DNA of 64,000 nt from assembly GCA_964558655.1 (NCBI GenBank), contig CAZLEX010000003.1:4975-68974 (forward strand), given 5' to 3'. A model generated the notes under the pieces. That model did not search any database, had not been told where the DNA came from, and saw nothing but the letters and a program-made list of their open reading frames with translations. The DNA is from an uncultured Oscillospiraceae bacterium (GTDB lineage Bacteria; Bacillota; Clostridia; Oscillospirales; SIG627). Both the position numbers and the translations under genes were made by a program. Shown one piece after another: positions 2,270-23,530 of the stretch; position 1 is the first letter of the stretch, and the number at the start of each line of letters is the position of its first letter.

Positions 2270-2299
2270 TTGTATGTCATGCTTAGGGTGTGATAGAAT
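2270..2299 (+). promoter_or_regulatory. Candidate extended -10 promoter for the phage-like island (TTGTAT ... TGaTAGAAT)
   Basis: TG at 2291-2292 and TAGAAT at 2294-2299, with a -35-like TTGTAT at 2270-2275. About 65 nt upstream of the first island ORF. Confidence 0.35.
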
Positions 2300-2365: not shown

Positions 2366-2527
2366 ATGATTTTTGATATATGTGTTTTGCTCATCGGCGT
2401 ATCGGCACTTGCGGCGGTGACATATTTTTCCTACGCTGTCGGCAAAAAAAGCGTCGGTAGCGACAGCGAAGAAAAATGGAAAGAAATAATCGATTACAGC
2501 CCGTCGGGGCGGGAGGATAAAAAATGA
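2366..2527 (+). CDS. 53-aa single-pass membrane protein (holin-like topology), first gene of island
   Basis: Manual translation: MIFDICVLLIGVSALAAVTYFSYAVGKKSVGSDSEEKWKEIIDYSPSGREDKK. RBS GGGAGGTGA at 2352-2360. Its stop overlaps the portal ATG (ATGA at 2524). Below the ORF-track cutoff. Confidence 0.45.
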   Translation: MIFDICVLLIGVSALAAVTYFSYAVGKKSVGSDSEEKWKEIIDYSPSGREDKK

Positions 2528-4092
2528 AGTCCGGAGAAAAAAAACAAACGCCCGACTGGGAGCTTCTCGAAAAGGGACGGGAATACAACCGCTCGCTCGG
2601 ATTTTACGAAACCGTCGACCGCAACGAACGCTTTTGGAGAGGAGACCAGTGGAACGGCATAAAGGGGAAAGGGCTTCCGACTCCCGTTTTCAACATTTTC
2701 AAGCGTGTCGTGGGGTACTTCGTTTCAAACCTGATGTCCTCCAAGATAAGCCTGAAAATCGACGCCGAAGGAATAGGTGCGATAGTGAAAAAGAATGTGC
2801 GGGAGGAACTCGACACCGCATGTTCGACTCTCACCTCCTATCTCAACTACCGCTTTGAAAAAGACAATATATCTTCTCTCCTTTACGACGGAGTGAAAGA
2901 CGCCGCACTTTCGGGGGATATGTTTCTTTATGTATGGTGGGACGGCGAGAAAAACACTTCTCAGAGTTACAAAGGGGATTTCTCCACAAAACTTCTGGAC
3001 GGAACCAATGTATTTTTCGGAGATGTGAACACGCCCGATGTGCAAAGTCAGCCCTACATAATCATTTCGGGCAGGGAGCTTGTCGAAAGACTGCGTGAGG
3101 AGGCTGAGAAAAACGGAGTTGACGAGCGTGACATTCGGAAAATCGTTCCCGACGCCGACAGTCTCTGGGAAGCGGGAGACGAGGGCAAGAGAGAACTTAC
3201 GGGTACGAAAACGGGCTTTATCATAAAGCTCTGGCGTGAAAACGGTACGGTTCATTACCGCAAAAGTACGAAAAACTGTACCGTCACGAAAGATATCGAC
3301 ACACATCTTTCCCTTTACCCGATAGTGCTCATGAATTGGGACAGAACGAAAAATTCCTATCACGGTACAAGCGTTGCAAGCTCGCTCATCGAAAATCAGG
3401 TTTACATCAACAAGGCTTTCGCAATGGTCATGAAACACATGATAAATGTTTCCTTCTCCAAAGTCGTATACAACGCCAACTTAATTGACGAGTGGACAAA
3501 CGGAGTAGGCGAGGCGATTGCAGTAAACGGACCTGTCGACAATGTTGCCGCAACTCTTGATCCGGGAGCAATGCAGCCGGGATTTTTAGATGTCATCAAC
3601 ATGACTATGAGCATGACGAGGGAGCTTATGGGTGCGACCGACGCGGCTCTGGGCAATGTCGAGGCGACCAACACTTCGGCGATAATCGCACTTCAGGAAT
3701 CCTCAGCCGTTCCCCTTCAGATTCAAAAGAGAGCACTCTACACCGCCGTTGAACAGCTTGCACTCATTTGGATTGATTATATTCTTCATTATTATGACGG
3801 ATACCGAATGATGATATGGCGGGAAAAGGAGGGATTGCGTTCGGGAAAACTTCCTCTTTCTTCTTTGAGCGACGCGGTCTTTTCCTGCAATGTAAGTGCG
3901 GGAATGTCGAGTTACTGGAGCGAGGTTGCAAGCTGTGCGACGCTCGATACGCTTTTGAAAAACGGTCTTATAACTCTTGAACAGTATCTTGAGAGAATAC
4001 CCGACGGATATATAAGCCGCCGAGAAGAACTTCTTGAGGACTGCAAAAGAGCGTCGGGAGGTGTAAAGTATGACGGGCAGAGAGGCGTATAA
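2524..4092 (+). CDS. Phage portal protein
   Basis: 522 aa with the N-terminal ERFWRGDQW motif typical of SPP1-Gp6-type portals. It sits at the head of a scaffold/capsid module. Confidence 0.8.
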   Translation: MKSGEKKQTPDWELLEKGREYNRSLGFYETVDRNERFWRGDQWNGIKGKGLPTPVFNIFKRVVGYFVSNLMSSKISLKIDAEGIGAIVKKNVREELDTACSTLTSYLNYRFEKDNISSLLYDGVKDAALSGDMFLYVWWDGEKNTSQSYKGDFSTKLLDGTNVFFGDVNTPDVQSQPYIIISGRELVERLREEAEKNGVDERDIRKIVPDADSLWEAGDEGKRELTGTKTGFIIKLWRENGTVHYRKSTKNCTVTKDIDTHLSLYPIVLMNWDRTKNSYHGTSVASSLIENQVYINKAFAMVMKHMINVSFSKVVYNANLIDEWTNGVGEAIAVNGPVDNVAATLDPGAMQPGFLDVINMTMSMTRELMGATDAALGNVEATNTSAIIALQESSAVPLQIQKRALYTAVEQLALIWIDYILHYYDGYRMMIWREKEGLRSGKLPLSSLSDAVFSCNVSAGMSSYWSEVASCATLDTLLKNGLITLEQYLERIPDGYISRREELLEDCKRASGGVKYDGQRGV

Positions 4093-4480
4093 TGCTTCGC
4101 TTGCACTTATAAACGAAAGGGACAGTCGGGGAGAATCACGGGAAGATATTCTCGATTATGAAAAAAACGCTCCCGAACTGCTCAATCTCATTGTGGCGGG
4201 ATTATGGTCACAAGACTGTCTTGTACGGGGAATGTCCCCTCACAGTCGCTGTTATCCTCCCGAAAAGATTTCCTCTCTTGACGATGACCTCCCGCTTCAC
4301 GAAGCGGTGTGTACGCTTGTGCCGTATATTTTGGCGTCCATGCTCATTCGTGAAGAGGACAGCAGCCGTGCCGAGTATTTCGACGGGCTGTTCAGGCGTG
4401 CCGAAAGCACTTTAAAATCGGCGTTTGCACGGGCTGAAAGGCAGTGCATACGGGATATTTATTCTGAGGAGGGAAGGTAA
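4070..4480 (+). CDS. Hypothetical phage-module protein (136 aa)
   Basis: RBS GGAGGTG precedes the ATG. It overlaps the portal 3' end by 23 nt and the next gene by TAATG. No recognisable motif. Confidence 0.5.
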   Translation: MTGREAYNASLALINERDSRGESREDILDYEKNAPELLNLIVAGLWSQDCLVRGMSPHSRCYPPEKISSLDDDLPLHEAVCTLVPYILASMLIREEDSSRAEYFDGLFRRAESTLKSAFARAERQCIRDIYSEEGR

Positions 4481-6231
4481 TGCCGAAATCGTTTTCGTTT
4501 ACGCTGGACAAGTTTTACGGGATTGATTACAGGGCTGAAAACGCAGACAGTGTACTGTACAGCCCGGACACCGTGAATTTTCGCATAACCGATTCTTACA
4601 AGCTGAAAAAGCGTGACGGATATGCGGTGATTTTTCCTCATTCTTCGGCGGGACGGGGAATAATTTCCTGCCGTATCAATTCATGCGAGAGCGTTTTTTA
4701 CTGTGTCGGAAAGAATGTGTATTGCATGAGAGACGGGGAAGAAAGCGAAATAGGCACGCTCGACAGCGATGAGGGCGATGTGACTTTTCTTCCGTTTTCA
4801 AACAGGCTTTACATTTTCGACGGCGTTAAAATCAAGGTGTACGACGGAGAAAATTTCGGTGAACTTGAACCCTACCGCCCGCTGATAGCGGTCTCCACAA
4901 CGCCGGACGGGGCGGGAGTTGCCTACGAGGAGAAAAATCTTCTCACGGGGAAAATGCGTCAGAGTTTTACCATGAACGGCACCGGAGTTACTCTAAAACT
5001 TGCCCTTGAAAAAATCGACAGCGTCGATTATGTAAAAATAGGAGATGAAACCGTTGAGAAAAACCTATACACCGTAAACCTTGAAAAAGGAAGTGTAACG
5101 CTGGAAAGTAAATGGCGTGATTACGAAGTGATAGACGGGATAGAAATAGGTTTTTCAAAGAGCGACGGACAGGAGGGAGATATCCACCGAATGAGGTACG
5201 GCGTGCTTTACGGCGGAGAAAACGACACCCATGTCTTTCTCTACGGAGACCGAAGCGACCCTTCGCTTATAAGGTATTCGGGGGTGAGCGGCGGGTGTGC
5301 GATGATGGAATATTTTCCGGAAAACTCCTTTAACCGAGTAGGCACGAAAAGTGGGGTTACATCTATTGTACGGCACTACGACAGGCTGGTAATTTTCTGT
5401 GAGGGAGAGGCGTTTTACGCTTATACCGAAGAAAGCACCGGCATTGACGGCAAAACACGGAAAATTTTTCCTCAACGCCCTCTTTCAAACGCCGTTGGGT
5501 GCTGTGTGCCGGGATTTGCTCCGCTTGTTGATTCTTCCCCCGTGACTTTCGACAGAGGCACGCTTTTTCGCTGGCGTGAGACATCGGTGCGTGACGAGAG
5601 ATATGCCGAAGATATCGGCGGGCGTATAAAGGCGGGGCTTGCCGAATGGAAGTCGGAGAATATACGCTGTTTCGACAACTTTTCTTCTCACGAGCTCTAT
5701 GTGTATCACGGAAACGAAATTTTCCTGTACAACTACCGCCTGGACACCTTTTGCTTCTGGCGTGGAATTTCCGCCTGCGGTTTTGCACTGACGGAGGAGG
5801 GGAAACTCTTCTTTCTGAGAGAGGACGGTTCGCTTTGCCTGTTTTCCGCGTCGGAATATGACGATACAGAGCCGATTGAGGCGTATTGGACAAGCGGATA
5901 TATGAACATTGCCGACGGAGTGAAAAATCTGTATCGGGTAAAACTCGTAACCCGTCCCGATGTAAGAACGCGGACAGACCTTTTCTGGTACTCAGAACAC
6001 GCCTGTGAGGGCAGGAAAAGCTTTTCGGACAATTACCGCCGTTTTGCTTTTTCTTCACTCGACTTTTCCTCTTTGGGATTTATGACGAGCCTGTCGCCCG
6101 TGAAAATGAGCTATCGGCTCAGGCATAAGCGTTTTGAGAGAATAAAGCTGAAGATATCCTGCGACTCTCCCGGTGCGTCACTGCACCTGCTCTCACTTTG
6201 CCTTGAGGGTGCGGTGACCGGAAAAAAATAA
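4480..6231 (+). CDS. Hypothetical large virion-module protein (583 aa); function unknown
   Basis: Translationally coupled to the preceding ORF. It occupies the slot between the portal and scaffold genes, has no Walker A and no TM, and looks beta-strand-rich. Confidence 0.55.
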   Translation: MPKSFSFTLDKFYGIDYRAENADSVLYSPDTVNFRITDSYKLKKRDGYAVIFPHSSAGRGIISCRINSCESVFYCVGKNVYCMRDGEESEIGTLDSDEGDVTFLPFSNRLYIFDGVKIKVYDGENFGELEPYRPLIAVSTTPDGAGVAYEEKNLLTGKMRQSFTMNGTGVTLKLALEKIDSVDYVKIGDETVEKNLYTVNLEKGSVTLESKWRDYEVIDGIEIGFSKSDGQEGDIHRMRYGVLYGGENDTHVFLYGDRSDPSLIRYSGVSGGCAMMEYFPENSFNRVGTKSGVTSIVRHYDRLVIFCEGEAFYAYTEESTGIDGKTRKIFPQRPLSNAVGCCVPGFAPLVDSSPVTFDRGTLFRWRETSVRDERYAEDIGGRIKAGLAEWKSENIRCFDNFSSHELYVYHGNEIFLYNYRLDTFCFWRGISACGFALTEEGKLFFLREDGSLCLFSASEYDDTEPIEAYWTSGYMNIADGVKNLYRVKLVTRPDVRTRTDLFWYSEHACEGRKSFSDNYRRFAFSSLDFSSLGFMTSLSPVKMSYRLRHKRFERIKLKISCDSPGASLHLLSLCLEGAVTGKK

Positions 6232-6258
6232 CGAAGCTTTGCTTCTGAAAGGATTTTT

Positions 6259-6681
6259 ATGAACAAAAGAACCGAAGAATTAATCGACGAAATAGGAGTT
6301 TCGGCGGGTAAAGACGAGCTTCGCGAGCTTGAAAATTTCAGACACGAAGCGAAAATCCGCGAAAATCTCGCACTTGAACTTGAGGAGTTTTCCACGCTTT
6401 TCGAAGACGTGAAAATCGACGATATTCCCGATGAGGTTTGGGAGGAGTGTCCCGACGGACGCGGACTTTGTGCGTGGTACGCACTCTTTCTCCGCCGCCG
6501 TGAGCGTGACGAGGGGTGTGCCGAAACTCAGAACGCCCGAAATTCAAACTCTGCCGTACCCGATGTAAAAAGCATTGCCGGCGAAATTTATTTCACACCC
6601 GAAGCGGTGCAGGCAATGTCGGAAGATGAAATCGGCAGGAATTACGGGGCTATTTTGGAATCCATGAAAAAGTGGAAATAA
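6259..6681 (+). CDS. Scaffold-like acidic helical protein (140 aa)
   Basis: Highly acidic, helix-prone sequence immediately 5' of the capsid gene. Assigned by position only. Confidence 0.45.
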   Translation: MNKRTEELIDEIGVSAGKDELRELENFRHEAKIRENLALELEEFSTLFEDVKIDDIPDEVWEECPDGRGLCAWYALFLRRRERDEGCAETQNARNSNSAVPDVKSIAGEIYFTPEAVQAMSEDEIGRNYGAILESMKKWK

Positions 6682-6704
6682 ACAGTGTGAAAGGATAAAA
6701 AATT

Positions 6705-7526
6705 ATGGCTATTACAAACTTTATTCCGAGTGTATGGAGCAAAGCTCTTTACGACGAACTCGCAAAAAATTATGTTGCCGTCAAACTTTCAAACCGTGAA
6801 TTTGAAGGCGAAATCAAAAGTCAGGGAGACAGAGTTAAAATCAACGGGCTGGGACCGGTCACCGTATTCAATTATACGAAAAACACCAATATGCCCGCTC
6901 CGGAAGTGCTTTCGGATAACACCCGCACTCTTGTCATAGATCAGGCAAAAGGCTTTAACTTCTGCATTGACGCCATCGACGATGTGCAATCCTCTCCCGA
7001 CCTCATTCATGCGTCCATGAAAAAAGCCGCCGACGCCTTGAGCGATGTTGCCGACAAGTACGTTTATTCCCTTACCGACAGCGAGGTCGAGTGTGTGGAA
7101 AACAAGTCGGCAGACAGCGAGAACATTCTCAAAACCATTTCCGACGCAAGAAGAATTCTCATGGAACACAATGTTTCCAACTCGACGCCGATATCGCTCG
7201 AAGTACCGCCTGCCGTAGAACAGCTCCTGGTGCTTGCAAAGGTACTCCGCGATACCGATAACAGCCGTGATTTTTCAAACGGCTATATAGGAAAGCTCAT
7301 GGGATTTGATATTTATGTCACCAATAATATCGTCCCCGACGGAGAAGGAGTTTACAAGTGCGTTGCCCGTACCGAGCGTGCGGTAGCCTTTGCACAGCAG
7401 ATAAATTCAATCAAGCCTTACGAGCCCGAACAGCGTCACGGAACGGCGGTAAAGGGACTTCACCTTTACGGTGCGAAAATCGTTTATCCCAAAGAGATGG
7501 TATTTCTCAATCTTACACTTGCTTAA
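6705..7526 (+). CDS. Major capsid protein, HK97-fold/P22-coat-like, unusually small (273 aa)
   Basis: N-terminus AITNFIPSVWSKALYDEL...EGEIKSQGDRVKINGLG matches the pattern I recognise from small phage capsid proteins. It follows the scaffold-like gene. Confidence 0.75.
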   Translation: MAITNFIPSVWSKALYDELAKNYVAVKLSNREFEGEIKSQGDRVKINGLGPVTVFNYTKNTNMPAPEVLSDNTRTLVIDQAKGFNFCIDAIDDVQSSPDLIHASMKKAADALSDVADKYVYSLTDSEVECVENKSADSENILKTISDARRILMEHNVSNSTPISLEVPPAVEQLLVLAKVLRDTDNSRDFSNGYIGKLMGFDIYVTNNIVPDGEGVYKCVARTERAVAFAQQINSIKPYEPEQRHGTAVKGLHLYGAKIVYPKEMVFLNLTLA

Positions 7527-7535
7527 AGGAATTAA

Positions 7536-7557
7536 GTCCTGCCCTTCGGGGCAGGGC
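7536..7557 (+). promoter_or_regulatory. Stable 9-bp stem with UUCG tetraloop directly after the capsid stop codon
   Basis: GTCCTGCCC-TTCG-GGGCAGGGC read directly. No U-tract follows, and the RBS of the next gene starts about 5 nt later. Confidence 0.5.
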
Positions 7558-7574
7558 ACAAAAGGAGAAGCTTT

Positions 7575-8525
7575 ATGAAAATCACAAAATTTGACGCAGA
7601 TGTTTCAAATGTGTCGCAGCTCCCCGATATTCCCACTATTGAAAACGGTTACACCTCCGATGTGCTGAAAAAGACATTCGACCGTGCGGGTGAAACGATA
7701 AAAGAGTACATAAACGGCGTACTTATCGAAGAGCTTTGCGGAGGAGAAGGAGCTTTGAAAATCGGCTCGGGTTATATAGAAACGGTAGAAGGAGACAGCG
7801 TTCAGGAAAAGCTGGAAACGGTAGGCAGAAAACTTTCCGAGCTTGCGGGAGGTTCCATTCCCGACGGCACGGTGACGCCCGAAAAGTTTGTCGAATCCGT
7901 TCGTCTCTTTATGACGGAAGGCGGTATTCACGCTCTCTCTTATTCTGAGGCGGGCGAATATGTGTTTGTACCGTCAAAAAGCGGAAATCATAAAATAAAA
8001 GTGCAGGGTGCGGGAGGCGGCGGAAGCGTTGCCGGAAACAGACGCTGTTCTTACGGGGGCGGTTCGGGAGCCTATACCGAAGCGTACATACGGCTTGAAA
8101 AGGGGAAGGAATATAAACTCACCGTCGGAGCCGGAGGAGCGGGGCTTTCTGTGACCGATGAGAAAAAAATGCTCTCCGATGCCGAAGAGGGCGGCGAAAG
8201 TGCCTTTTTTGACGGTGAAAACAAACTTGTATGGGCAGAGGGCGGAAAAATCAAAAATCACGCTGACGGCGAAGCTGCGGCAGGAGGCGGAATTTTCGGA
8301 AGAAGCGGTGCTTATCCGCTCTTTTCGGGGTTAAGCTCTCTTGATGATTCCTGCTTTGCGATAGGTGCACCGTCGGCACTCTCTCCCGGAGTTTACAGTG
8401 CCGAAGTCTCTGCCGGAAGCGGTGCGGGAGGCTGGGGATCGTATATGGATATTACCGACGGCACTTACATTCCCGGAACAAAAGGCGGAGACGGCTTAAT
8501 AATAATAGAATGGCTGGAGGGATAG
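7575..8525 (+). CDS. Fibre-like protein with C-terminal glycine-rich domain
   Basis: The N-terminus KFDADVSNVSQLPDIP...TFDRAGETIKEYINGVLIEEL resembles Firmicute phage fibre N-termini. The C-terminal half carries GAGGGGS/GGGSGAY/GAGGAG runs and ends GGDGLIIIEW. Confidence 0.7.
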   Translation: MKITKFDADVSNVSQLPDIPTIENGYTSDVLKKTFDRAGETIKEYINGVLIEELCGGEGALKIGSGYIETVEGDSVQEKLETVGRKLSELAGGSIPDGTVTPEKFVESVRLFMTEGGIHALSYSEAGEYVFVPSKSGNHKIKVQGAGGGGSVAGNRRCSYGGGSGAYTEAYIRLEKGKEYKLTVGAGGAGLSVTDEKKMLSDAEEGGESAFFDGENKLVWAEGGKIKNHADGEAAAGGGIFGRSGAYPLFSGLSSLDDSCFAIGAPSALSPGVYSAEVSAGSGAGGWGSYMDITDGTYIPGTKGGDGLIIIEWLEG

Positions 8526-8526
8526 A

Positions 8527-9105
8527 ATGGTAAAAGAGTATTCTTACGCAAAAAACAAAAACGATTATCTCACTCCCAATTTCAAAGTGGGAGAGTTCCG
8601 TGCCCGTCGCGGAAACGAACTTGACGGGGACAGGATACTTATTGACGAAGAGCTTGTGGAAAAGTTAGAGCATTTGTCGCTTCTTGTCAGAAGAGCTCCG
8701 GTAATCGTGACAGACGGTTACCGCACGGAAGAGTTTGACATTCTTCTCACGGGTGGTGTGGGACAGCACACCAAAGGCAAAGCCGCTGATATACGGGTAA
8801 GCGGGTACACATCTTATGAGCTTGCCTCTCTTGCCGAAGAAATAGGTTTCGGCGGAATAGGCATTATCAATTCCGAGAGTATTCATGTCGATACACGTCC
8901 GTGGCACAGCTTTTTCCTGGAAAACAGCACGGCATTGTTCGATACAAGTCCCGTTTCGCATTTTACAAGTGCCGAAATGAGAAAAAAGCATGTGCAGAAA
9001 TATTTTTCTTTGGGAGACAACACCGTAAAATATCTTTCCGAATGGACTTGGGCAGACGCTCTTTTCGATAAACTTTTTTACGGAATAGTTGACGCGGGCA
9101 GGTGA
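8527..9105 (+). CDS. Peptidase M15-family cell-wall hydrolase (endolysin-like)
   Basis: DGYRT ... QHTKGKAADI ... SIHVD gives an H-x6-D...H zinc-ligand pattern. No signal peptide or wall-binding domain. Confidence 0.8.
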   Translation: MVKEYSYAKNKNDYLTPNFKVGEFRARRGNELDGDRILIDEELVEKLEHLSLLVRRAPVIVTDGYRTEEFDILLTGGVGQHTKGKAADIRVSGYTSYELASLAEEIGFGGIGIINSESIHVDTRPWHSFFLENSTALFDTSPVSHFTSAEMRKKHVQKYFSLGDNTVKYLSEWTWADALFDKLFYGIVDAGR

Positions 9106-9110
9106 AGTAT

Positions 9111-10049
9111 ATGTCATATGAAAACAGTGTGAAAAATATGGCGTCTCAGATAATAAACGGGTACGCCAAAGCGATGAACAGAATAAAAAACACCTACGAC
9201 GCCAAAGTAGGTGCTCTTGACGAGGAATATCTTGCGAGAAACCGCGAGATAAACCGTGAAAACATTGAGGCGAAAAATCGCACATCGGCGAATTATAAAC
9301 TCAGTCTTGACGAGGCACAAAAAAGTTTGCTTGACCGTGGGCTGTCAAAATCCGGAGAGGCTGTCAACACCGAAATTCTTTCCAATCTCTCCAAAAATTC
9401 GGCTTTTGCGGCACTTGATGCACAGGCACAGTCGGACAGAGAGGAAAACGCTCTTTCAAGAAGCCGTGAAAAGAGCGAACTCATATCCGACAGGCTTAAG
9501 CAGGAGCAGGAAACGGAAAACAGTATGCTCGAAGCGTTGAGAAATCAGTACAACCTCGACCGAAATTACGATTTGCAGCTGTCGGAAAACGCGGAGGATA
9601 CGAGACGCTGGAACGAGGAAAACGAGGAAGACAAAAGACGGTGGGAGGCAGAGCAGTCGCTTGCCGAGAGAAAGACAGCCGTATCGGAAGGTGAACTTGC
9701 CCTGAAAAAGTCCGACGCTCAAAAGCAAAGTATACAGACTGCCGCTTCGCAGATTAAAAACACCGTTTCCGACGCATTGGAAAAGCTTACGGGAAACGGA
9801 GGTATTGTCGGAAAGATAAAGAGTATTTTCCCGTCTCTTAGCGATGAGGAAACGACGAAACTGTCGAAATCTCCCGAAAAACTCGTTCAGGAGATGTACG
9901 AAGAATTTCAAAGAAAGGATTATTCGTCGGAAGATGTGCGTAATTACGCTCTGGCAAGTGCGGTTTACGATATAGTAAACGATTACGGCATAGACGAAGA
10001 TTATCGCAAACAAGTGCGTATTTACGCTCATGCAATGGGATATATCTGA
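9111..10049 (+). CDS. Coiled-coil protein of unknown function, last gene of island
   Basis: ATG at 9111 follows AGGTGA (the track start at 9102 is GTG). The sequence is E/K/R/N/L-rich with heptad-like stretches and no TM. Confidence 0.6.
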   Translation: MSYENSVKNMASQIINGYAKAMNRIKNTYDAKVGALDEEYLARNREINRENIEAKNRTSANYKLSLDEAQKSLLDRGLSKSGEAVNTEILSNLSKNSAFAALDAQAQSDREENALSRSREKSELISDRLKQEQETENSMLEALRNQYNLDRNYDLQLSENAEDTRRWNEENEEDKRRWEAEQSLAERKTAVSEGELALKKSDAQKQSIQTAASQIKNTVSDALEKLTGNGGIVGKIKSIFPSLSDEETTKLSKSPEKLVQEMYEEFQRKDYSSEDVRNYALASAVYDIVNDYGIDEDYRKQVRIYAHAMGYI

Positions 10050-10077
10050 AAAAGCACACCTCAGGGTGTGCTTTTTG
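10050..10077 (+). terminator. Rho-independent terminator closing the island
   Basis: Perfect 11-bp stem AAAAGCACACC-TCAG-GGTGTGCTTTT plus a T-run, starting 1 nt after the stop codon. Confidence 0.8.
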
Positions 10078-10128: not shown

Positions 10129-13100
10129 ATGCAAAATCCGCTTTTGAAAGAAAAACTTATAGCAACCGGTTTTACCGGAGAAAAAGTAAAGGCGATACCC
10201 ATACGCAAATATCTTAAAAAAATCGCCGAAAGGGTAAAGAAGTCCGAAAAAAACCGTGCCGAAAAGAGTGTTTGGCTCAGTGAAAATTTTTATCTCATTG
10301 AGAGAGCCGTGCGGGAGACGGCAAGAATAAAACGGAAAAAATATTCTCCCCTTCTTCCGTTGACCGATGTATTCGCACACGAATGTGTAAAACTCGAAAA
10401 TGACGATGTATCGGCTTTGTTCGATGTCATAACGAGAGAGGGAAAAGCCGATGACACTCTCCTCGCAAGCGTACGCTATGCACTCATTTATTCCTGTGTC
10501 GCGGAGATTTCCGAGAGGTGTGAGAGCGAGGAAAAAATCGGAGAAAAAATTGAACTTTTGCGTGCCGTTATGACATTCGATATGAGCTCTCTTATCATGG
10601 GCTTTTCCGCATCCGAGAGGTATTTGCGTTCGGATCCGGCGGGAATATGGCAGAAAATGAGCCGTTCCTCCCGCCTGCTTTATAAAAAATCTCTTATGAA
10701 AACGGCACGCCGTGAGGGAGAAAGTTATGAAAAGGTATGCGAAAGCGTCGCACTCAGAGCTTCCGAAAATTCACGGCACATAGGAGAGTACATCGATTTT
10801 ACAAATTCAAGCCGATATCTCTACTATCCGCTGCTTTTTGTACTGTTCCTGATTTTTATGGCACTGTCCTTGCGTTTCCTTTTGCTCACCTGTCCCGCTT
10901 ATGTCGTGTGTTTGACTGCGGTTTGCCTGGCTGTTCCGCTCTTTGAAACTGCTTGCACTCTTGCGGGATTCGTCGTTTCGCTTTTTTACAAAAGCGATAT
11001 TCTGCCACGCATTGAAATTGACGGGATAGATGAGAGTGTATCGACGCTCGCCGTTGTGACGGCACTTGTTTCAAATGCCGATGAGGCGGAAGAACTTATA
11101 TCCCGCACGGAAAATCTCTATCTCAAATCGAAAAGCCGTGACGCAGAGGACGAAGGCTTGTTTTTCGGCGTGCTTATGGACTTGCCCGAAAGCGATATTC
11201 CGGTCGGGGAAAACGACGGAGAAATATTGAAAGTTTCGCTCGAAAAAGTCGATTTTCTCAATAAAAAACACGGCGGGCATTTTGAAGTTTTCTGGCGTGA
11301 CAGGGTATATGACGCATCAAGCGGACGGTACACGGCTTACGAGAGAAAAAGAGGTGCTCTTCTGGAACTTACCCGCTTTTCGCTCAAAAAGCCCTCCTCA
11401 ATACATTGCCACGGAGCACCTATGCCGAAAATCCGCTACATCGTAACTCTTGACAGCGATACGGATATATGTATGGGAGATCTCGCAAAACTTGTGGGAA
11501 CTATGGAGCATCCCTTGAACCGTCCCCGACTTGCCGAAAAAGACGGTGTATTTTATGTGAAAGAGGGTTTCGGAATTTTACAGCCTGCCATATTGCCCTC
11601 GCTTTCTTCGGCATATAAGACGCCTTTTTCAATTCTTACAAGCGGTGCCGGAGGGCATGACGCATATCATTCTCCAATCTTTAATCTGTTTTTCACTCTT
11701 CACCGCCGTGCCATGTTTTGCGGCAAGGGAATTTTCGATACCGAGTGTTATCTCAAAGTTCTTGAAAACGCATTTCCCGACAATACTGTCCTGAGTCACG
11801 ATATGCTTGAGGGTTCAAGACTTCGTGCGGGCTTTGCCGGAGATATCGTATTTTCCGACAGCACTCCCGGCAATATCATTTCCTATTATAAGCGTGCACA
11901 CCGCTGGGCGAGAGGGGATACGCAAGCCCTGATTTTCGTTACTCCCTATGTATGCGACCGACACGGACGCAGGGTAAAGAATGTACAGCCTCTGTCCGAC
12001 CGTTTCGTTTTTGTTTTCAATTTTTTAAGTCTTTTGTCTCCCGCTTTTTCTCTGTGTGCACTTCTTCTGGCAATGAATCTTGAGTGGCAAGCGGGTACAT
12101 TCATTGCTCTTGCCGCGCTTTTGCCTGTTTGGGTTTACTCTGTAACGGGCGTTTTTATGATGTTTGTACATCTCTCTTTCGTCACCATTTTCAGACGCTT
12201 TTTTACCCGTGCCGTTACGGGTTGCGTCAGGGAACTTGCGTGGCTCGTTTTTTCCCTTTCGGCATTGGCTTACCGAGCGTGGAACAATTTTAATGCCGTA
12301 TGTCTTTCGCTTTTTCGTCTTGCCGTCACACATCGCAAACTTTTGGAATGGAATACCGCACAGGCGGTTGAAAGCTCTCTGTATTCCAAAGGCGGTATTG
12401 TCGGATATTTCTTTTACACACTTCCGTCGTTTTTGACAGGTGTGTTCATCGTGATATTTTCCACCCACCCTCTTGTAAGACTTTCGGGTATCCTGTTCAT
12501 GTCTTTTTTCGCAATAGGATTTCTGAGTGCAAAAAACTCGCGAAAGTCAGTTTCGCTTTCCCCACATGATGAAAAGAAGCTTCGCCTTTATGCCGAAAAA
12601 ACATGGAAATTTTTCGACACTTTCCTAACAGAGTCCGACAATATGCTTCCCTGCGACAATGTCAGTATATCTCCGGAATATAAGGTGGCACACCGTACTT
12701 CTCCGACAAATATCGGACTTTGGCTTTTGTGTGCTCTCGCGTCACGCGATTTGGGGCTGATAAATTCCGATTCCCTTGCCCGACGCCTTGAAAAAACGCT
12801 CGAAGCTCTCGAAAAAATGCCGAAATGTCGGGGACATTTGTATAATTGGTATTCCACAAGAACGCTTGAGGTTATGGGAGACGCGTATATTTCCACAGTG
12901 GACAGCGGAAATTTTGCCGTCTGTCTTGCAACTCTCGTACAGGGGTTATACGAGTATGCGGGCGAATGTCCGAAACTTTGTGAAATTGCACGACGTTTTG
13001 AAAAGCTCGAGAAGGATATTGATTTTAAATTTTTGTACGATTCTCACCGTCGGCTTTTTTATATAGGATACAATGCCGATAAGCGAGAATACGACAATTC

Positions 13101-16100
13101 GCATTACGATTTGTATATGAGCGAGGTGCGTACTCTTTGCTATTATTCGGTGGCAAGGGGAATTGCCGACAAAAGACTGTGGGAGAGTCTCTCCCGTTCG
13201 CTTATCGCACGCCGTTTTTTAATTGGTGCGGCGTCATGGAGCGGTACGGCGTTTGAATATTTCATGCCCTGCCTGTTTTTGCCCGTTTATGAAAACAGCT
13301 TTGCGCAGGAGGCTCTTTCCTTTGCTTTCACTGAGCAGGTTTGCCGTTTTTCCCGTTTCAAAGGCATGAAAGTGTGGGGCACATCGGAAAGCGGTTATTT
13401 CGCTTTTGACCGCGACATGAATTATCAGTACCGTGCTTTCGGCGTACCATCGCTTGCACTCTCAAGTCAAAATGACACCGACAGGGTAATTTCACCCTAT
13501 TCGTCTTTTTTGATGCTTCGCGAAAATGTTTCTCTCTGCATTGAAAATCTTGAAAAGCTCGAAAAACTCGGAATGTTCGGGGAATACGGTTTTTACGAGG
13601 CGGCGGACTTTTCTCCCGAGCGTTCGGGAGGCGGTTTTGCAATGGTAAAAAGCTATATGTCTCATCACGCCGGAATGAGCCTTATCGCCATTGCGAATAC
13701 ACTTTTAAACGATATTTTCGTTTCCCGTTTCATGCGGGATTCCGAGATGAAAAGTGCGTCGGAGCTGCTTGAAGAAAGGGTACCGGCAGACGCACTGATT
13801 TTTTCGCGAAACAAAATCCGCACAAGAGAGCGTGAGGTGAAACTCTTTCATCTTTTCCTGCGTGACAGTCTGAGCGTTTGCAAAAATTCAGAGAGAGCCG
13901 CAACGCATATTCTTGCCGGCAGAGAATGTTTTATGGCTTTGAGCGAGCGTGGAGTTGAAAATTTTTCGGGACGGGATATTCTGTATTCTTCGCCGCGAAA
14001 AAATTCCTTTCTTCCTTTTTGCCGTGAGGGAGAAAAAATCTTCTCACCCGTTGCGGCCGAAAAAGAATTTTGCTATTCGTCCGGATTTGCCGTTTACCGC
14101 ACAAAAAACACGCAAATCACATTGAATCTGTCCTCCTCTTCTCCCACAGTGAGAATAACTGCGGCGTTTGACACTCAGGGGAGCGAGAGCGGATTTTATT
14201 TTGAACCGGCGTTTGTATCACACAAGGCGTATATCGCTCACCCCGCATATGCCGAGCTTTTCTTTGAAGGACGGTGGGACGGTGAAAAAAAGGCACTTTA
14301 TCTCACTTATCACGGTAAAAAGCCTTATTCTCTCTGCCTTTTGTGCAACTGTGAATTTGAGTTTGAACTGTTTCGGGAGACTGTCTTTGACAAAAAGGAA
14401 GCAAACACACAGAACCTTTTCGATTATATAAAAAGCACTCCGAATTTTTCCTGCAGAACGGGCACTCTTCTTTCTCCCTGCATTTTGGCACGGACTTCTT
14501 GCAGTGCGGGTGCGTTTTTCGTAATGGGATTCGGAAAAAGCGAGAATGAGGCGTTTTATGCGGCGTATGAAGAGCTTTCACTGAGCCGTCACCGAAGTCT
14601 TTCGCTTTCCGACGGATTTGAAAGACGCCTTTGGGCTTCCTCTTGTGCTCATGAATTTAACCGTCTGCTCGATGAGTTTTTGCTTTTCTCACTGAGGGAG
14701 AGTACAGGCATGAGGCAGGCGGAAATTTTACCTCCGATTTATTCGCAAAAAGCTCTCTGGAAGTGGGGAATATCGGGAGATTTGCCGATAGTTTTCGTGA
14801 GCGGTGCGCTGAAAGAGGAAACACTGGAGAAAATATTCGCACAGCATAAGTATCATTATATCGCCGGCGTCCGTTACGATATTGCACTCGTATGCTGCGA
14901 TTACGGATATATGCGGACACAGAGAGAGCGTGTAATAAGAGTGCTTAAAAATACTAAATGTTCTTTTATGCAAAACCAGCCGGGCGGTATATACCTGCTT
15001 GACAAGGACGCATGGGATACATTTCGTCTGTGTGCGAAAGTTGTGATTGAAAGGGAGAGCGATATCATCTCTCTTCCCGCACAGGAAGGTTTTTCTTTGG
15101 AGACACAAAAGAGGAGAGAAAATTCGTACAGTACGGAACATGGTTTTTCAAAAGGTAAATATATCATAAACAAGAGCGTTTACAGTCCGCCGATACTTTG
15201 GCACCATATTATCGCGTCTGACGGTTTCGGAACGCTTGTTACAAGCAGAAATCTCGGGCATACTTGGGCGTATAACGCCGGTCTTTCCCGTCTGACCTTT
15301 TGGGAAAACGACCGAGTCGGAGGGGAAATGAGCGAAAAAATATATCTTTCGCAGGGAGGATATTCCTATGATATGTGCGATTTTGCCGACAGAGTGGAAT
15401 TTTCTCCGGGAGAAGCAAGGTATCTTTCTTCTCTTTTCGAGGTGAGAGTTAATGTAAGCCCGACGCTCATGTACAAGGAGGTATCGGTAAAGCTTTTCAC
15501 AAACACGGAGATATCTCTTTTTTACAAAATTCCGTCTGTCATGGGTGACGGAACATCAAAGGCGGGAGGCGTTGTGTTTGAAAAAATTTCCTGCGGAATT
15601 AAATTTGCCAATCCTTTTTCCGAGTCCTTTGAAAAAGGGTTCGGATACCTTGTAAGCGACGGGGAGGTATTTTATTCACCATACGGACTCGGCGTAAAAA
15701 AGACGGTCTTTAAGGGAGAGGAGATAAAATTTTTTATAGGGTTTGCAAGGGGAGAAAAACACTTTGAAAGGGCAATCGCAAGAGCTTTATCGGGCAGTTG
15801 CGAAAAAGAAAGCCGTGAGAGTGCGAAAAAGTTTCTTCCGAAATGCGAAAAAAGTGTTTTTAACGAAAGCGAAGAGGAAATGTTTAAAACATTCATTCCT
15901 CTTCAGTGCGTATTTTCGCGGATAATCGCACGCACGGGTCCTTATCAGTCGGGCGGTGCATGGGGGTGCCGAGATCAGACGCAGGATATGTTTTATATGA
16001 TAAATGTTTGTCCGGAGCGTGTTGCGTCTCATCTGTTCCGACTTGCCTCCCATCAGTATCTTGAGGGAGATATGCAGCATTGGTGGCACGGCTTTCGCGG

Positions 16101-17112
16101 TACCCGCACAAAATGCTCCGACGACTATCTCTGGTTCGTTTTGCTTTTGAGCGAATATGCCGAACGGACGGGAGACAATAAAATCTTCGAAAAAAGGGTG
16201 AGATATCTGCAAAGTTCGCCTCTTGCCGAAAACGAAAGCGAGAGGTATGAGGAGGCTGAATTTTCTTCCTGTCGGGAAAACCTCGTAATGCACGCCAAAA
16301 GATGTCTCGACCTGTTTATGTCGCGTGGCAGGGGAGTACACGGTATTGTGCTTATGGGAAGCGGAGACTGGAACGACGGCATGAACCGTGTCGGTCAGGG
16401 AGGCGGAGAGAGCGTCTGGCTCGGATTTTTTGCCGTCAGTGTTTTTTACCGTGCTTTTCCGTTTTTGGAACGCTTCGGTATAAACACGGAAGAGTACAGA
16501 AATTTTTGCCGTGATGTTATATGTGCGATAGAAAATCACGCTTTTGAAACCGACCGGTATGTGAGGGCTTTTTTGTCCGATTCAAGCGTATTGGGAAGTA
16601 AAAGTTTTGAGGGAGGCTGTAAAATCGACGGAATTGTTTCTTCCGCCGCGTCCGTTTGCTATGCCGTTTCCTCTCTCGGTTCCCCCTCGCGTATTTGTGC
16701 TTCCCTCGATACTTCGTGGAGGGAGCTGTACGACAGAAAAAACAAAATCTTTAAGCTTTTTTCACCGCCTTTTGAAAAAGCAGATGACCGTGTGGGGTAT
16801 GTCACCTGTTATCCGCAGGGCATTAGGGAAAACGGCGGACAGTATACCCACGCCGCGATTTTTTCGGCAATAGGGTATTATTTCGCTCCCGCAGAAAAAA
16901 AGAAAAACCGCGAAAGAGCACGGCTTATTTTGGAGGCGGTGCTTCCCTGCAACAGAAATCCCGATGTTTTCAAGACGGAGCCTTACGCACTTGCCGCCGA
17001 TATATATTCAAATCCCTCCCATGAGGGACGGGGAGGGTGGAGCTTTTATACGGGTTCTGCCGGGTGGTGCGAATATCTTATGAACCTTTTTTCAAAAGAA
17101 AATCCGGAATAA
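10129..17112 (+). CDS. Cyclic beta-1,2-glucan synthase-like giant protein (GT84 + cyclisation region + GH94 phosphorylase-like domain)
   Basis: GT84 motifs are TLDSDTD, SHDMLEG and HRWARGDTQ, flanked by TM clusters. The middle region has PTNIGLWL, GHLYNWY and STVDSGN. The C-terminal GH94-like region has CRDQTQD, QHWWH and GSGDWNDGMN. Start moved to ATG 10129 (RBS GAGAGGG) because 10030-10128 spans the upstream terminator. Confidence 0.8.
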   Translation: MQNPLLKEKLIATGFTGEKVKAIPIRKYLKKIAERVKKSEKNRAEKSVWLSENFYLIERAVRETARIKRKKYSPLLPLTDVFAHECVKLENDDVSALFDVITREGKADDTLLASVRYALIYSCVAEISERCESEEKIGEKIELLRAVMTFDMSSLIMGFSASERYLRSDPAGIWQKMSRSSRLLYKKSLMKTARREGESYEKVCESVALRASENSRHIGEYIDFTNSSRYLYYPLLFVLFLIFMALSLRFLLLTCPAYVVCLTAVCLAVPLFETACTLAGFVVSLFYKSDILPRIEIDGIDESVSTLAVVTALVSNADEAEELISRTENLYLKSKSRDAEDEGLFFGVLMDLPESDIPVGENDGEILKVSLEKVDFLNKKHGGHFEVFWRDRVYDASSGRYTAYERKRGALLELTRFSLKKPSSIHCHGAPMPKIRYIVTLDSDTDICMGDLAKLVGTMEHPLNRPRLAEKDGVFYVKEGFGILQPAILPSLSSAYKTPFSILTSGAGGHDAYHSPIFNLFFTLHRRAMFCGKGIFDTECYLKVLENAFPDNTVLSHDMLEGSRLRAGFAGDIVFSDSTPGNIISYYKRAHRWARGDTQALIFVTPYVCDRHGRRVKNVQPLSDRFVFVFNFLSLLSPAFSLCALLLAMNLEWQAGTFIALAALLPVWVYSVTGVFMMFVHLSFVTIFRRFFTRAVTGCVRELAWLVFSLSALAYRAWNNFNAVCLSLFRLAVTHRKLLEWNTAQAVESSLYSKGGIVGYFFYTLPSFLTGVFIVIFSTHPLVRLSGILFMSFFAIGFLSAKNSRKSVSLSPHDEKKLRLYAEKTWKFFDTFLTESDNMLPCDNVSISPEYKVAHRTSPTNIGLWLLCALASRDLGLINSDSLARRLEKTLEALEKMPKCRGHLYNWYSTRTLEVMGDAYISTVDSGNFAVCLATLVQGLYEYAGECPKLCEIARRFEKLEKDIDFKFLYDSHRRLFYIGYNADKREYDNSHYDLYMSEVRTLCYYSVARGIADKRLWESLSRSLIARRFLIGAASWSGTAFEYFMPCLFLPVYENSFAQEALSFAFTEQVCRFSRFKGMKVWGTSESGYFAFDRDMNYQYRAFGVPSLALSSQNDTDRVISPYSSFLMLRENVSLCIENLEKLEKLGMFGEYGFYEAADFSPERSGGGFAMVKSYMSHHAGMSLIAIANTLLNDIFVSRFMRDSEMKSASELLEERVPADALIFSRNKIRTREREVKLFHLFLRDSLSVCKNSERAATHILAGRECFMALSERGVENFSGRDILYSSPRKNSFLPFCREGEKIFSPVAAEKEFCYSSGFAVYRTKNTQITLNLSSSSPTVRITAAFDTQGSESGFYFEPAFVSHKAYIAHPAYAELFFEGRWDGEKKALYLTYHGKKPYSLCLLCNCEFEFELFRETVFDKKEANTQNLFDYIKSTPNFSCRTGTLLSPCILARTSCSAGAFFVMGFGKSENEAFYAAYEELSLSRHRSLSLSDGFERRLWASSCAHEFNRLLDEFLLFSLRESTGMRQAEILPPIYSQKALWKWGISGDLPIVFVSGALKEETLEKIFAQHKYHYIAGVRYDIALVCCDYGYMRTQRERVIRVLKNTKCSFMQNQPGGIYLLDKDAWDTFRLCAKVVIERESDIISLPAQEGFSLETQKRRENSYSTEHGFSKGKYIINKSVYSPPILWHHIIASDGFGTLVTSRNLGHTWAYNAGLSRLTFWENDRVGGEMSEKIYLSQGGYSYDMCDFADRVEFSPGEARYLSSLFEVRVNVSPTLMYKEVSVKLFTNTEISLFYKIPSVMGDGTSKAGGVVFEKISCGIKFANPFSESFEKGFGYLVSDGEVFYSPYGLGVKKTVFKGEEIKFFIGFARGEKHFERAIARALSGSCEKESRESAKKFLPKCEKSVFNESEEEMFKTFIPLQCVFSRIIARTGPYQSGGAWGCRDQTQDMFYMINVCPERVASHLFRLASHQYLEGDMQHWWHGFRGTRTKCSDDYLWFVLLLSEYAERTGDNKIFEKRVRYLQSSPLAENESERYEEAEFSSCRENLVMHAKRCLDLFMSRGRGVHGIVLMGSGDWNDGMNRVGQGGGESVWLGFFAVSVFYRAFPFLERFGINTEEYRNFCRDVICAIENHAFETDRYVRAFLSDSSVLGSKSFEGGCKIDGIVSSAASVCYAVSSLGSPSRICASLDTSWRELYDRKNKIFKLFSPPFEKADDRVGYVTCYPQGIRENGGQYTHAAIFSAIGYYFAPAEKKKNRERARLILEAVLPCNRNPDVFKTEPYALAADIYSNPSHEGRGGWSFYTGSAGWCEYLMNLFSKENPE

Positions 17113-17163
17113 ATTTTTTTGTGTGTCATACAATGTATAAAAAATAAAAAAGGAGAAGAAAGT

Positions 17164-22662: not shown

Positions 22663-23523
22663 TCAATATCTTTGTGTACAGCTTGTGGCGTCGTATACGC
22701 TTTCTTCTCCGTCCGCAAAGGTTATTTTGTAGGAGGGAGTCATGTAAACATCGCCGTTTTCCGCCCTGACGGGATAGTAAATAAGTTCTATTTTTTTAAT
22801 TTCACATTCGGAAAGTGTGAAAAGAAAATTGAGAGCGTCAAGAGAATTTGCCTTTAACTGTGTAAGAGTGCCGGCAAAGAACAAAGTACCCTCTGCACGA
22901 AGGAGCGAGCCGTCCTTAAGCGCAACGGTAATTACTGCTTTGTCAATCTGCACGGAGTTTATCTTTTGAACAAAACCGATGTATAAAATTCCGTCGGCGT
23001 CTGTGAAAGAGCCGGTTGCCTCAAGAGAAAAATCGCCGTTACCCAGCCCCGCAAAAAGCTTGTCGGAAAGCTTTTCGGCGTATTTTGAGGCTGATTTTTC
23101 GGGGGGACTGTTCCGGAGTTTCTCCAAAATCCGCTCTTCGAAATCAGCCGTGCCGTCCAGAGCGTATTCAAAGGTGCCCTCGTCGTAAAAAGAGAGAGTT
23201 TCTCTCTCGTTAGTGTATCCCACGCCGTTCGGAATGACATACCGGGCAAAAGAACTTTTCATAATGCTTTTTGCCGTTTTTTCATAAACCGTGTCGGATA
23301 TCGCAAGCTTAAGGACGGATGGGACGGTTTTTTCTTCGGGAAGTGTGCCGATATCCGTTACAATTCCTCTTTCGGCAAGTATTTTTACCGCAAGCTCCAT
23401 TTCCCCGTCGCTGTACAGCTTATCGGAATCCGAGTATGCTTTGTATTGATAAACAAAGAAAATATTTACCGCGAGAAACATGACAATGAGCAGGAGCTTC
23501 AGTTTTGACGAATTCATACGCAC
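22663..23523 (-). CDS. YycI-like regulatory protein of the WalRK system
   Basis: 286 aa with an N-terminal anchor LKLLLIVMFLAVNIFFVYQY like YycI. Fourth gene after the response regulator, histidine kinase and YycH-like gene. Confidence 0.55.
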   Translation of the reverse strand: MRMNSSKLKLLLIVMFLAVNIFFVYQYKAYSDSDKLYSDGEMELAVKILAERGIVTDIGTLPEEKTVPSVLKLAISDTVYEKTAKSIMKSSFARYVIPNGVGYTNERETLSFYDEGTFEYALDGTADFEERILEKLRNSPPEKSASKYAEKLSDKLFAGLGNGDFSLEATGSFTDADGILYIGFVQKINSVQIDKAVITVALKDGSLLRAEGTLFFAGTLTQLKANSLDALNFLFTLSECEIKKIELIYYPVRAENGDVYMTPSYKITFADGEESVYDATSCTQRY

Positions 23524-23530
23524 ACTCCTT

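Follow-up and report, generated by a model that had tools for sequence, protein, structure and literature searches.

We analysed a 64-kb stretch of contig CAZLEX010000003.1 from an uncultured Oscillospiraceae bacterium (hereafter the window), in which nine genes resembling phage virion genes, named g1 to g9, occupy positions 2366-10077. An original prediction, made from the sequence alone, had described this block as a head-gene island without terminase, integrase, replication or tail genes. It offered two options for the block: (a) a domesticated particle-forming module, whether similar to a gene transfer agent (GTA), a protein-cargo capsid or a satellite that borrows a helper's terminase and tail, or (b) an unusually clean prophage remnant.

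Organisation and products of the nine-gene block

The nine open reading frames (ORFs) are co-directional (Table 1) and as tightly packed as had been described. Both the ORF list and a reading of the sequence gave an ATGA overlap at 2524, a 23-nt overlap at 4070-4092, a TAATG junction at 4480, a 1-nt gap at 8525/8527 and an overlap at 9102-9105.

Table 1 Genes and sequence signals of the nine-gene block, in window coordinates
Feature	Description	Length	Position	Strand	Basis
Candidate promoter 1	sigma-70-like, TTGTCA-18-TATAAA		2217-2246	+	read by eye
Candidate promoter 2	sigma-70-like, TTGTAT-17-TAGAAT		2270-2299	+	read by eye
g1	single-pass membrane protein	53 aa	2366-2527	+	ORF, ribosome-binding site (GGGAGGTG)
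g2	portal, P22/SU10 (podovirus) type	522 aa	2524-4092	+	family scans
g3	helical protein, probable head-to-tail adaptor	136 aa	4070-4480	+	position
g4	predicted podovirus tail nozzle/hub, beta-propeller type (T7 gp12 / P22 gp10)	583 aa	4480-6231	+	AlphaFold2 and Foldseek
g5	acidic scaffolding protein	140 aa	6259-6681	+	position, composition, C-terminal likeness
g6	major capsid protein, HK97 fold	273 aa	6705-7526	+	family scans
g7	tail fibre / receptor-binding candidate, glycine-rich C-terminal domain	316 aa	7575-8525	+	family scans
g8	M15 (VanY-like) zinc peptidase, endolysin candidate	192 aa	8527-9105	+	family scans
g9	coiled-coil protein	315 aa	9102-10049	+	family alignment
Hairpin	intrinsic-terminator-like, at the operon end		10050-10077	+	AAAAAGCACACC / tcag / GGTGTGCTTTTT, read in the sequence

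Within this block, the protein encoded by g2 matches PF16510 (E 3.3e-12), PF23899 (E 9.8e-09) and phrog_156 (E 2.5e-33), and is ~30% identical to the portals of the Bacillus podophages Pascal and Page and 58-79% identical to its orthologues in the type A and B loci described below. The protein encoded by g6 matches PF25209 (E 4.2e-07) and phrog_267 (E 6.9e-40), and is 36-40% identical to the capsid proteins of phages D6E, AP45 and phiCP34O. The gene g5 immediately precedes the capsid gene in all loci and encodes a protein with 33 aspartate and glutamate residues versus 19 lysine and arginine residues. Over its last ~30-40 residues this protein is 45-50% identical to the C-termini of 280-aa proteins at the scaffold position in two related clusters (L002 and L137; L numbers denote related loci), and it shares a coat-binding-like segment with them. 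The Pfam and PHROG matches, the gene position and the C-terminal likeness bear out the earlier assignment of a portal and of an acidic scaffold-like protein 5' of an HK97-type capsid protein. P22-type heads assemble without a maturation protease, and the nine-gene block likewise lacks one.

Four of the products (53, 136, 583 and 315 aa) had been reported to match nothing recognisable, and the island had been considered to lack tail genes. An AlphaFold2 model of g4, based on an alignment of 29 sequences, reached a predicted local distance difference test score (pLDDT) of 89.8 and a predicted template modelling score (pTM) of 0.87. When this model was compared with the PDB using Foldseek, the best matches were all podovirus nozzle or hub chains (E 1.7e-20 to 1e-12), including the tail of Pa223 (9nwi_Y, E 1.7e-20), SU10 (7z4b, E 4e-16), T7 (9jyz_P, E 1.4e-15), P22 gp10 (8u10_1, E 5e-14), several Klebsiella phages and cyanopodophages. 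In addition, g4 matches phrog_3287, a virion structural protein, and its homologues (n=56) are ~580-600 aa long, many of them on long contigs of metagenome-assembled genomes (MAGs). The modelled fold indicates that g4 is a podovirus tail nozzle, and the island would therefore encode a short podovirus-type tail and not a head only. The earlier view that it has no tail genes does not hold, given that a probable adaptor and a fibre are encoded as well. The portal belongs to the dodecameric portal family and the nozzle to the hexameric beta-propeller type, which match the P22/SU10/T7-type tail machine at family and fold level.

Other identities were rejected. The original prediction had allowed that the 583-aa protein might turn out to match a terminase, but its fold is that of a tail nozzle. 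A head-only island is ruled out by the nozzle gene, and an encapsulin-like compartment by the portal and tail genes.

The gene g3 directly precedes the nozzle gene wherever both were detected, namely in the relatives of types A and B, in their sister clade C (all described below) and in phage relatives. Its positional equivalent in Acidaminobacterium (L137) has a weak match to the Pfam family SU10_adaptor, and hhalign aligned only the C-terminal helix of the g3 family with this equivalent, weakly (probability 34%). A single-sequence AlphaFold2 model of g3 was all-helical and of low confidence (pLDDT 61). From its position, g3 is probably the head-to-tail adaptor. The protein encoded by g7 matches PF21722 (Gly_rich_2, E 4.3e-10) and phrog_863 (E 2.2e-10), and its N-terminus matches the tail-fibre family phrog_14469 (E 0.0028), in agreement with the glycine-rich-domain fibre proposed earlier. 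A g7 homologue directly follows the nozzle gene in ~40-kb phage contigs (L104, L106, L120, L130, L134 and L135).

The coiled-coil gene g9 was found in loci of all three clades, directly after the nozzle gene in types B and C. While the 583-aa product could be assigned by its fold, the 315-aa product of g9 indeed has no match in the PDB, Pfam or the annotated PHROGs. Searches of PDB sequences with the g3 and g9 profiles returned only spurious coiled-coil or designed-protein matches, and Pfam and PHROG scans of the family members of both gave nothing useful. Judging by gene position, one might guess that g9 is a tail needle or plug, or an ejected internal protein.

The M15 peptidase recognised earlier in g8 is confirmed by matches to PF08291 (Peptidase_M15_3, E 2.8e-10) and to the endolysin family phrog_894 (E 1.2e-20), and the motifs H-x-x-G-x-A-x-D (HTKGKAAD) and, later, E-S-I-H are intact in the translation. 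This gene is present in type A loci only. The small gene g1 lies directly upstream of the portal gene, at the position held by the large terminase subunit (TerL) gene in sister clade C. Its product has no Pfam or PHROG match, and its C-terminal motif, W-x-x-I-[IL]-x-Y-[DN]-H-[KR]-K, is conserved in many relatives and fits no known family. Small transmembrane ORFs with this motif precede the portal gene in type A loci and in part of the type B loci (e.g. L004:7872-8048 and L007:6455-6658), and g1 is possibly a holin-like protein or an assembly factor.

By these assignments, the block encodes all parts required to assemble a small particle of the podovirus kind (portal, scaffold, HK97-fold capsid and nozzle), along with a fibre, an M15 lysin and three conserved accessory proteins.

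The two candidate promoters share the intergenic region with a divergent gntR promoter (2223-2195, minus strand). Although candidate operon promoters had been placed at 2217-2299, a consensus scan of this region reported no plus-strand promoter and only the minus-strand gntR promoter, which leaves the two as candidates read by eye. The 5' leader contains a small GC-rich hairpin (GGTGC-n8-GCACC) at 2318-2335, downstream of the candidate promoters and upstream of g1. The terminator hairpin noted earlier at the operon end is present in the sequence; a simple terminator scan did not list it because its T run belongs to the stem. An Rfam scan of the window gave no match.

The rest of the window is ordinary chromosome, with sipL, an aspartate aminotransferase gene, an EPSP-synthase-family (murA/aroA-type) gene, a two-component system, ecfA1A2T-truA, clpC, a P-type ATPase gene and rqcH. 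The neighbouring gene at 10129-17112 encodes a 2327-aa GH94 / glucoamylase-like giant protein of cyclic beta-1,2-glucan-synthase-like architecture, and adjoins the block as a conserved gene in most type A genomes. Its start is most likely the ATG at 10129 and not that at 10030, and there is then no overlap with the island. It is followed at 17119-18726 by a homologue of SipL (SPOCS domain), which suggests that the host is an endospore former. Large window ORFs at 45910-49128, 22663-24973 and 27539-28645 (1072, 286, 480 and 368 aa) had no Pfam match at the thresholds used.

Relatives of the block in gut Clostridia

A portal-based genome scan, with one genome per species, found a relative in 348 genomes, and the loci of the best 80 of the 348 were examined. 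These 80 genomes are all MAGs of gut Clostridia, Oscillospiraceae or 'Eubacteriales'. Three types of loci were clearly distinguished by gene maps and a search for TerL.

Type A loci, with portals 67-79% identical to that of the window, have the same nine genes in the same order and no TerL gene, and are flanked by gntR-ABC-permease genes on one side and by GH94/sipL genes on the other. Their capsid proteins are 62-90% identical to g6. At least 14 species-level genomes have this nine-gene type A block with the same host genes around it, and ~29 more have a version of six to seven genes. It lies between the gntR-ABC genes and the GH94 gene in L003, L010-14, L017, L019-21 and L034, and in five further loci (L004-6, L016 and L018) all nine genes are inverted as a unit between these flanks (GH94/sipL and gntR-ABC-permease).

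Type B loci (portal 56-61% identical) have the order portal-scaffold-capsid-adaptor-nozzle-(fibre)-coiled-coil, again with no TerL gene. Their flanks are housekeeping genes, such as M16 peptidase genes, lgt, folD, trigger-factor-like genes and a LysR gene on one side and RNase H and mnmA genes on the other, and in at least ten species the module sits between the lgt/folD/trigger-factor-like genes and the RNase H/mnmA genes. Type B modules have no local lysis genes and, in part, no local fibre gene. Assemblies with type A or B loci include GCA_054276095.1 (contig JAZOHP010000007.1), GCA_017467865.1 (JAFUKG010000041.1), SVQQ01, JAFXEX01 and JAZOLO01.

Type C loci (portal 48-52% identical) are organised as TerS-TerL-portal-scaffold-capsid-X-adaptor-nozzle-coiled-coil-holin-c15, where TerS is the small terminase subunit and the holin is Hol44. 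These clusters of ~9.3 kb (e.g. L070:7980-17307, and L052-L088) were found in at least 37 species, wedged between housekeeping genes such as secD, secF, lepA and a hemW-like radical-SAM gene. Ruminococcus sp. CAG:382 is represented in one TerL cluster of 307 members. The large TerL clusters carry this name or that of Clostridia, and the nearest named relative of the capsid protein of L002, a high-GC faecal contig, is Acidaminobacterium chupaoyuni.

In a bootstrapped neighbour-joining tree of the portals, type A was nested in type B, and the groupings A+B, C and A+B+C were recovered in 200/200, 200/200 and 159/200 replicates, respectively, with portals of ~40-kb phage contigs (38-44% identical to that of the window) as outgroups. 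The terminase-less loci, which come from ~43 species-level genomes of uncultured gut Clostridia/Oscillospiraceae, are in this tree one monophyletic portal clade, sister to clade C.

A related cluster is present in a cultured organism, Acidaminobacterium chupaoyuni (L137; CP176394.1, 1929669-1950505). Here the host genes coaX (type III pantothenate kinase) and an energy-coupling factor (ECF) component are inserted between the capsid and adaptor genes, and the portal gene is ~10 kb downstream of the TerL gene, which means that splitting and shuffling do occur in this superfamily. At L046:8277-9794, a portal homologue (57% identity) is followed by no recognisable scaffold, capsid or nozzle gene, and could represent either a solitary portal gene or another rearranged form.

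Several database 'viruses' of 5-10 kb consist solely of such chromosomal clusters, namely L002 (MT836592.1) and the IMG/VR uncultivated viral genomes L091, L092 and L095. Of these, L091 comprises nothing but a type A block, and the clusters of L070 and L095 are identical.

Selection and vertical inheritance

The ratio of nonsynonymous to synonymous substitution rates (dN/dS) was calculated by the Nei-Gojobori method for five type A pairs, including the window and its 95%-identical relative L139, and ranged from 0.03 to 0.25 over all genes. For the window versus L139, the values were 0.04 (portal), 0.13 (136-aa protein), 0.15 (nozzle), 0.25 (scaffold), 0.05 (capsid) and 0.09 (fibre). Three further informative pairs (dS ~0.5-1.6) gave 0.03-0.20 for all eight large genes, and a more divergent pair, in which dS is partly saturated, gave 0.05-0.18. 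By gene, the ranges were 0.03-0.07 for g2, 0.04-0.16 for g3, 0.03-0.10 for g6, 0.03-0.12 for g8 and 0.06-0.12 for g9. Type B pairs gave 0.02-0.23, and type B and C pairs behave alike. The ORFs are intact in every complete type A locus examined.

The divergence of the block follows that of host genes. Across type A, portal divergence tracks GH94 divergence (r = 0.89). Between the window and L003, the portal is 76% and the capsid protein 85% identical, while the flanking ABC, gntR and GH94 products are 56%, 55% and 48% identical, respectively. Neither the GC content nor the codon usage of the block departs from the range seen among the window's host genes, so that the impression of a codon style like that of the neighbours, first gained by eye, was confirmed by computation. 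A recent prophage is ruled out by this host-like codon usage and by the deep synteny.

The original prediction had proposed to examine whether relatives keep the block at the same locus with dN/dS well below 1, and the block was kept there in at least 14 species-level genomes, with dN/dS well below 1 in the pairs compared. Among the observations that it had named as speaking against a domesticated module, a complete prophage at the locus was carried by none of the relatives, and the orthologues showed no decay. That the block is of phage origin is certain, and the absence of terminase, replication and lysogeny genes is what an inert, unusually clean prophage remnant without function would also present. 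With all genes intact, dN/dS this low, a portal and a capsid protein conserved above the host neighbours, and maintenance across ~43 species-level genomes, such a remnant is extremely improbable, and option (b) is effectively refuted. Neither decay nor relaxed selection nor sporadic spread, the marks of a defective prophage, was found. The low dN/dS, the conservation and the covariation with host genes exclude a decaying remnant and argue for the vertical inheritance of a working machine.

The same observations bear on a phage satellite, that is, a capsid-forming island that spreads horizontally and uses the terminase of a helper, perhaps after induction by it. The block is compact, has its own capsid genes and no terminase at the locus; similar clusters (L091 and L092) are flagged as viral in IMG/VR, and a preprint of 2026 points out a possible resemblance of GTA-like clusters in gut MAGs to capsid-forming satellites. 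However, Pfam scans of 39 other window ORFs (38 outside the island flanks and the GH94 neighbour) found housekeeping families only, and no recombinase, polymerase, repressor, tail tube or tape measure, as had been claimed for the window. Flanking direct or inverted repeats around the block were limited to short matches at chance level. No integrase, excisionase, replication or regulatory gene was found in the block, and no att site. The block encodes its own tail, whereas capsid-forming phage-inducible chromosomal islands (cf-PICIs) steal tails; it occupies the same chromosomal position across species whose flanking genes are 40-55% identical, its divergence tracks that of host genes, and its codon usage is fully host-like. 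We therefore regard a satellite as quite improbable, and this part of option (a) is poorly supported.

Option (a) as such, a domesticated particle-forming module, is strongly supported by the syntenic conservation, the purifying selection, the host-like codons and the monophyly of the clade. As in GTAs, virion genes lie in the chromosome without replication, integration or lysogeny-control genes, as judged by the family scans and the lack of flanking repeats, and they appear to be inherited vertically under purifying selection. The best reading of these comparisons is that a short-tailed phage similar to P22/SU10 gave rise to the island, which has become a domesticated operon passed on vertically.

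The missing terminase and related particle systems

The terminase searches covered the 64-kb window and +/-10 kb of the related loci. A tblastn search with the TerS and TerL sequences of phage Pascal and of the faecal contig MT836592.1 found no terminase in the window, nor did a TerL profile hidden Markov model, built from 51 sequences and run against the six-frame ORFs of the window. In 944 kb of A/B DNA this profile also found nothing (best E 0.33), and tblastn detected no TerL in any A/B locus. None of the nine island proteins has a Walker A motif. On these points the original prediction, which had seen neither a terminase nor a Walker A motif, stands, and TerS and TerL genes of its own, as GTAs have, are missing from this locus and its A/B relatives. 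TerL was absent from 40/40 type A/B loci with at least 2 kb of sequence upstream of the portal gene, and lay directly upstream of the portal gene in 37/37 clade C loci. None of the 80 best genome hits has both an A/B locus and a clade C locus.

The closest described system is FpGTA of Faecalibacterium prausnitzii, the first podovirus-like GTA-like element (Nat Commun 2026;17:2046, PMC12946183). Its operon I has ~10 genes, including TerS, TerL, portal, scaffold, capsid and conserved short-tailed-phage hypotheticals, while the genes for fibre, receptor binding and lysis are found at a second locus, 125 kb from the first; particles measure ~40 nm and contain 8.4-8.9 kb of random host DNA (PMC12946183). 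GTA-like packaging without identified genes has been described for Gemmiger, Ruminococcus callidus, Onthomonas and Christensenellaceae (PMC12946183).

The absence of TerL from every A/B locus and from the profile search, set against a sister clade that always has it beside the portal gene, is what one would see if the clade were truly terminase-less and its particles, empty or loaded in a non-canonical way, had another role. Clade C clusters are lacking from the A/B genomes among the best 80 hits, no island protein has a Walker A motif, and the terminase-less state appears ancient and stable, being confined to one monophyletic clade. Such particles could be bacteriocin-like killers similar to PBSX, which would adsorb to related cells and puncture them, decoy procapsids directed against the packaging complexes of infecting related phages, or protein-carrying shells, and the authors of the FpGTA study leave a PBSX-like tailocin role open for particles of this kind (PMC12946183). 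Against this, in P22-type phages the adaptor and the tail join the portal once DNA has been packaged, and a conserved set of adaptor, nozzle and needle is therefore most in keeping with DNA-filled heads. The portal is also as constrained as in the terminase-bearing sister clade, with an omega of ~0.04 in the terminase-less clade versus ~0.06 in clade C, and the site-wise conservation of the two clades is correlated (rho 0.66) with no region relaxed. Moreover, GTAs are as a rule encoded at several loci, an organisation also seen in this superfamily, and the type B modules without local fibre and lysis genes imply that some parts are encoded elsewhere. On balance, we consider a truly terminase-less clade possible but unlikely. 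Its strongest form, in which a clade of gut Clostridia has long kept, under strong selection, a portal-bearing capsid with a short tail and no terminase anywhere in the genome for a job other than terminase-driven packaging, is doubtful to a slightly greater degree; that job might be that of a podovirus-type killer particle, of a decoy procapsid capturing the packaging complexes of invaders, or of a particle loaded by an unknown route.

With moderate confidence, we instead favour a GTA-like particle operon whose terminase is supplied in trans from an unlinked locus, which is plausible because the genes of GTAs, those of FpGTA included, are typically split over several loci. In such a system the operon would be transcribed in a subpopulation of cells from the region upstream of g1, and the scaffold, capsid protein and portal would form a small procapsid. 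The terminase from the unlinked locus would fill it with a short headful of cellular DNA, after which the adaptor, nozzle, coiled-coil protein and fibres would close and arm the particle. The M15 peptidase, perhaps together with g1, would lyse the producer cell and release the particles, and the element would thus be the structural and lysis locus of a gene-transfer-agent-like system. Several points weigh against this proposal. Since the window and the 10 kb around each A/B locus yielded no terminase, its supply in trans is an assumption, and a co-resident clade C cluster is not an obvious donor in the genomes compared. The functions of g1, g3 and g9 were assigned from their position, and expression, particles and packaged DNA are predictions from the genes of this clade.

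The likeness of the window element to FpGTA includes podovirus-derived chromosomal particle genes in gut Oscillospirales, a portal-scaffold-capsid core with conserved hypothetical tail proteins, podovirus structural proteins (a P22/SU10 portal and a nozzle fold), the lack of replication and integration genes, and near-ubiquity in the host lineage. By gene layout, it is clade C (TerS-TerL-portal-scaffold-capsid-X-adaptor-nozzle-coiled-coil-holin, ~9.3 kb) that has the architecture of FpGTA operon I. The window element departs from this architecture in that it lacks TerS and TerL at the locus, has its adaptor-nozzle pair moved ahead of the scaffold-capsid pair, and carries the fibre and lysin genes in the same operon, whereas FpGTA has them at the second locus. 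The FpGTA portal and capsid proteins are RCH50851.1 and RCH50849.1 (CP030777, 2536737-2546346), and the nearest named relatives of the TerL and capsid clusters tested were not Faecalibacterium.

Other systems are more distant. GTAs of the RcGTA type (Rhodogtaviriformidae, Alphaproteobacteria) are likewise domesticated head-tail clusters, inherited vertically under purifying selection, with no replication or integration genes, with parts encoded elsewhere and with release by lysis; they differ in having a siphovirus-like long tail, a maturation protease and TerS/TerL at the head of the main cluster, and are unrelated in sequence and from another phylum. PBSX of Bacillus subtilis is also a chromosomal phage-derived particle of Firmicutes that is released by lysis, and it shows that such particles can act on other cells without DNA delivery, but it is myovirus-like, spans 28 kb and has its own terminase and repressor, while the element described here is a 7.7-kb podovirus-like operon. 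The cf-PICIs share with it the small size, their own capsid and portal genes and the need for virion functions from another element; they have an integrase, regulation, replication and their own terminase, all four of which are missing here, and borrow tails, where the window element has its own tail and a fixed position. P22/SU10/T7-type phages and the Bacillus megaterium Pagevirus phages (Pascal and Page) share the P22/SU10-family portal, the nozzle fold and scaffold-dependent, protease-free assembly, but are complete viruses of ~40 kb with TerS/TerL upstream of the portal, tailspikes, ejection proteins and replication genes. Judged by gene content and order, the window element is best described as a terminase-less, rearranged variant within the newly recognised podovirus-like GTA-type elements of gut Oscillospirales.

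The first podovirus-like GTAs of gut Firmicutes were described in 2026 and came from a single genus. The window element broadens this family, which would include a terminase-bearing clade in many Oscillospiraceae/Ruminococcus-like species and a sister clade of ~43 species without an adjacent terminase. Such loci are filed as 'viruses' in virome databases, where they could make virus counts too high and blur the host-DNA signals in data from virus-like particles. The cultured Acidaminobacterium chupaoyuni, with its related split cluster, might be used as a model for experiments on particle production in this superfamily. If the terminase is encoded elsewhere in the genome, the element would represent a new multi-locus type of GTA, and its portal, capsid and nozzle would serve as marker genes for producers in animal-gut metagenomes; if there is no terminase, it would be a rare case of a portal-bearing phage particle exapted for a job other than DNA packaging.

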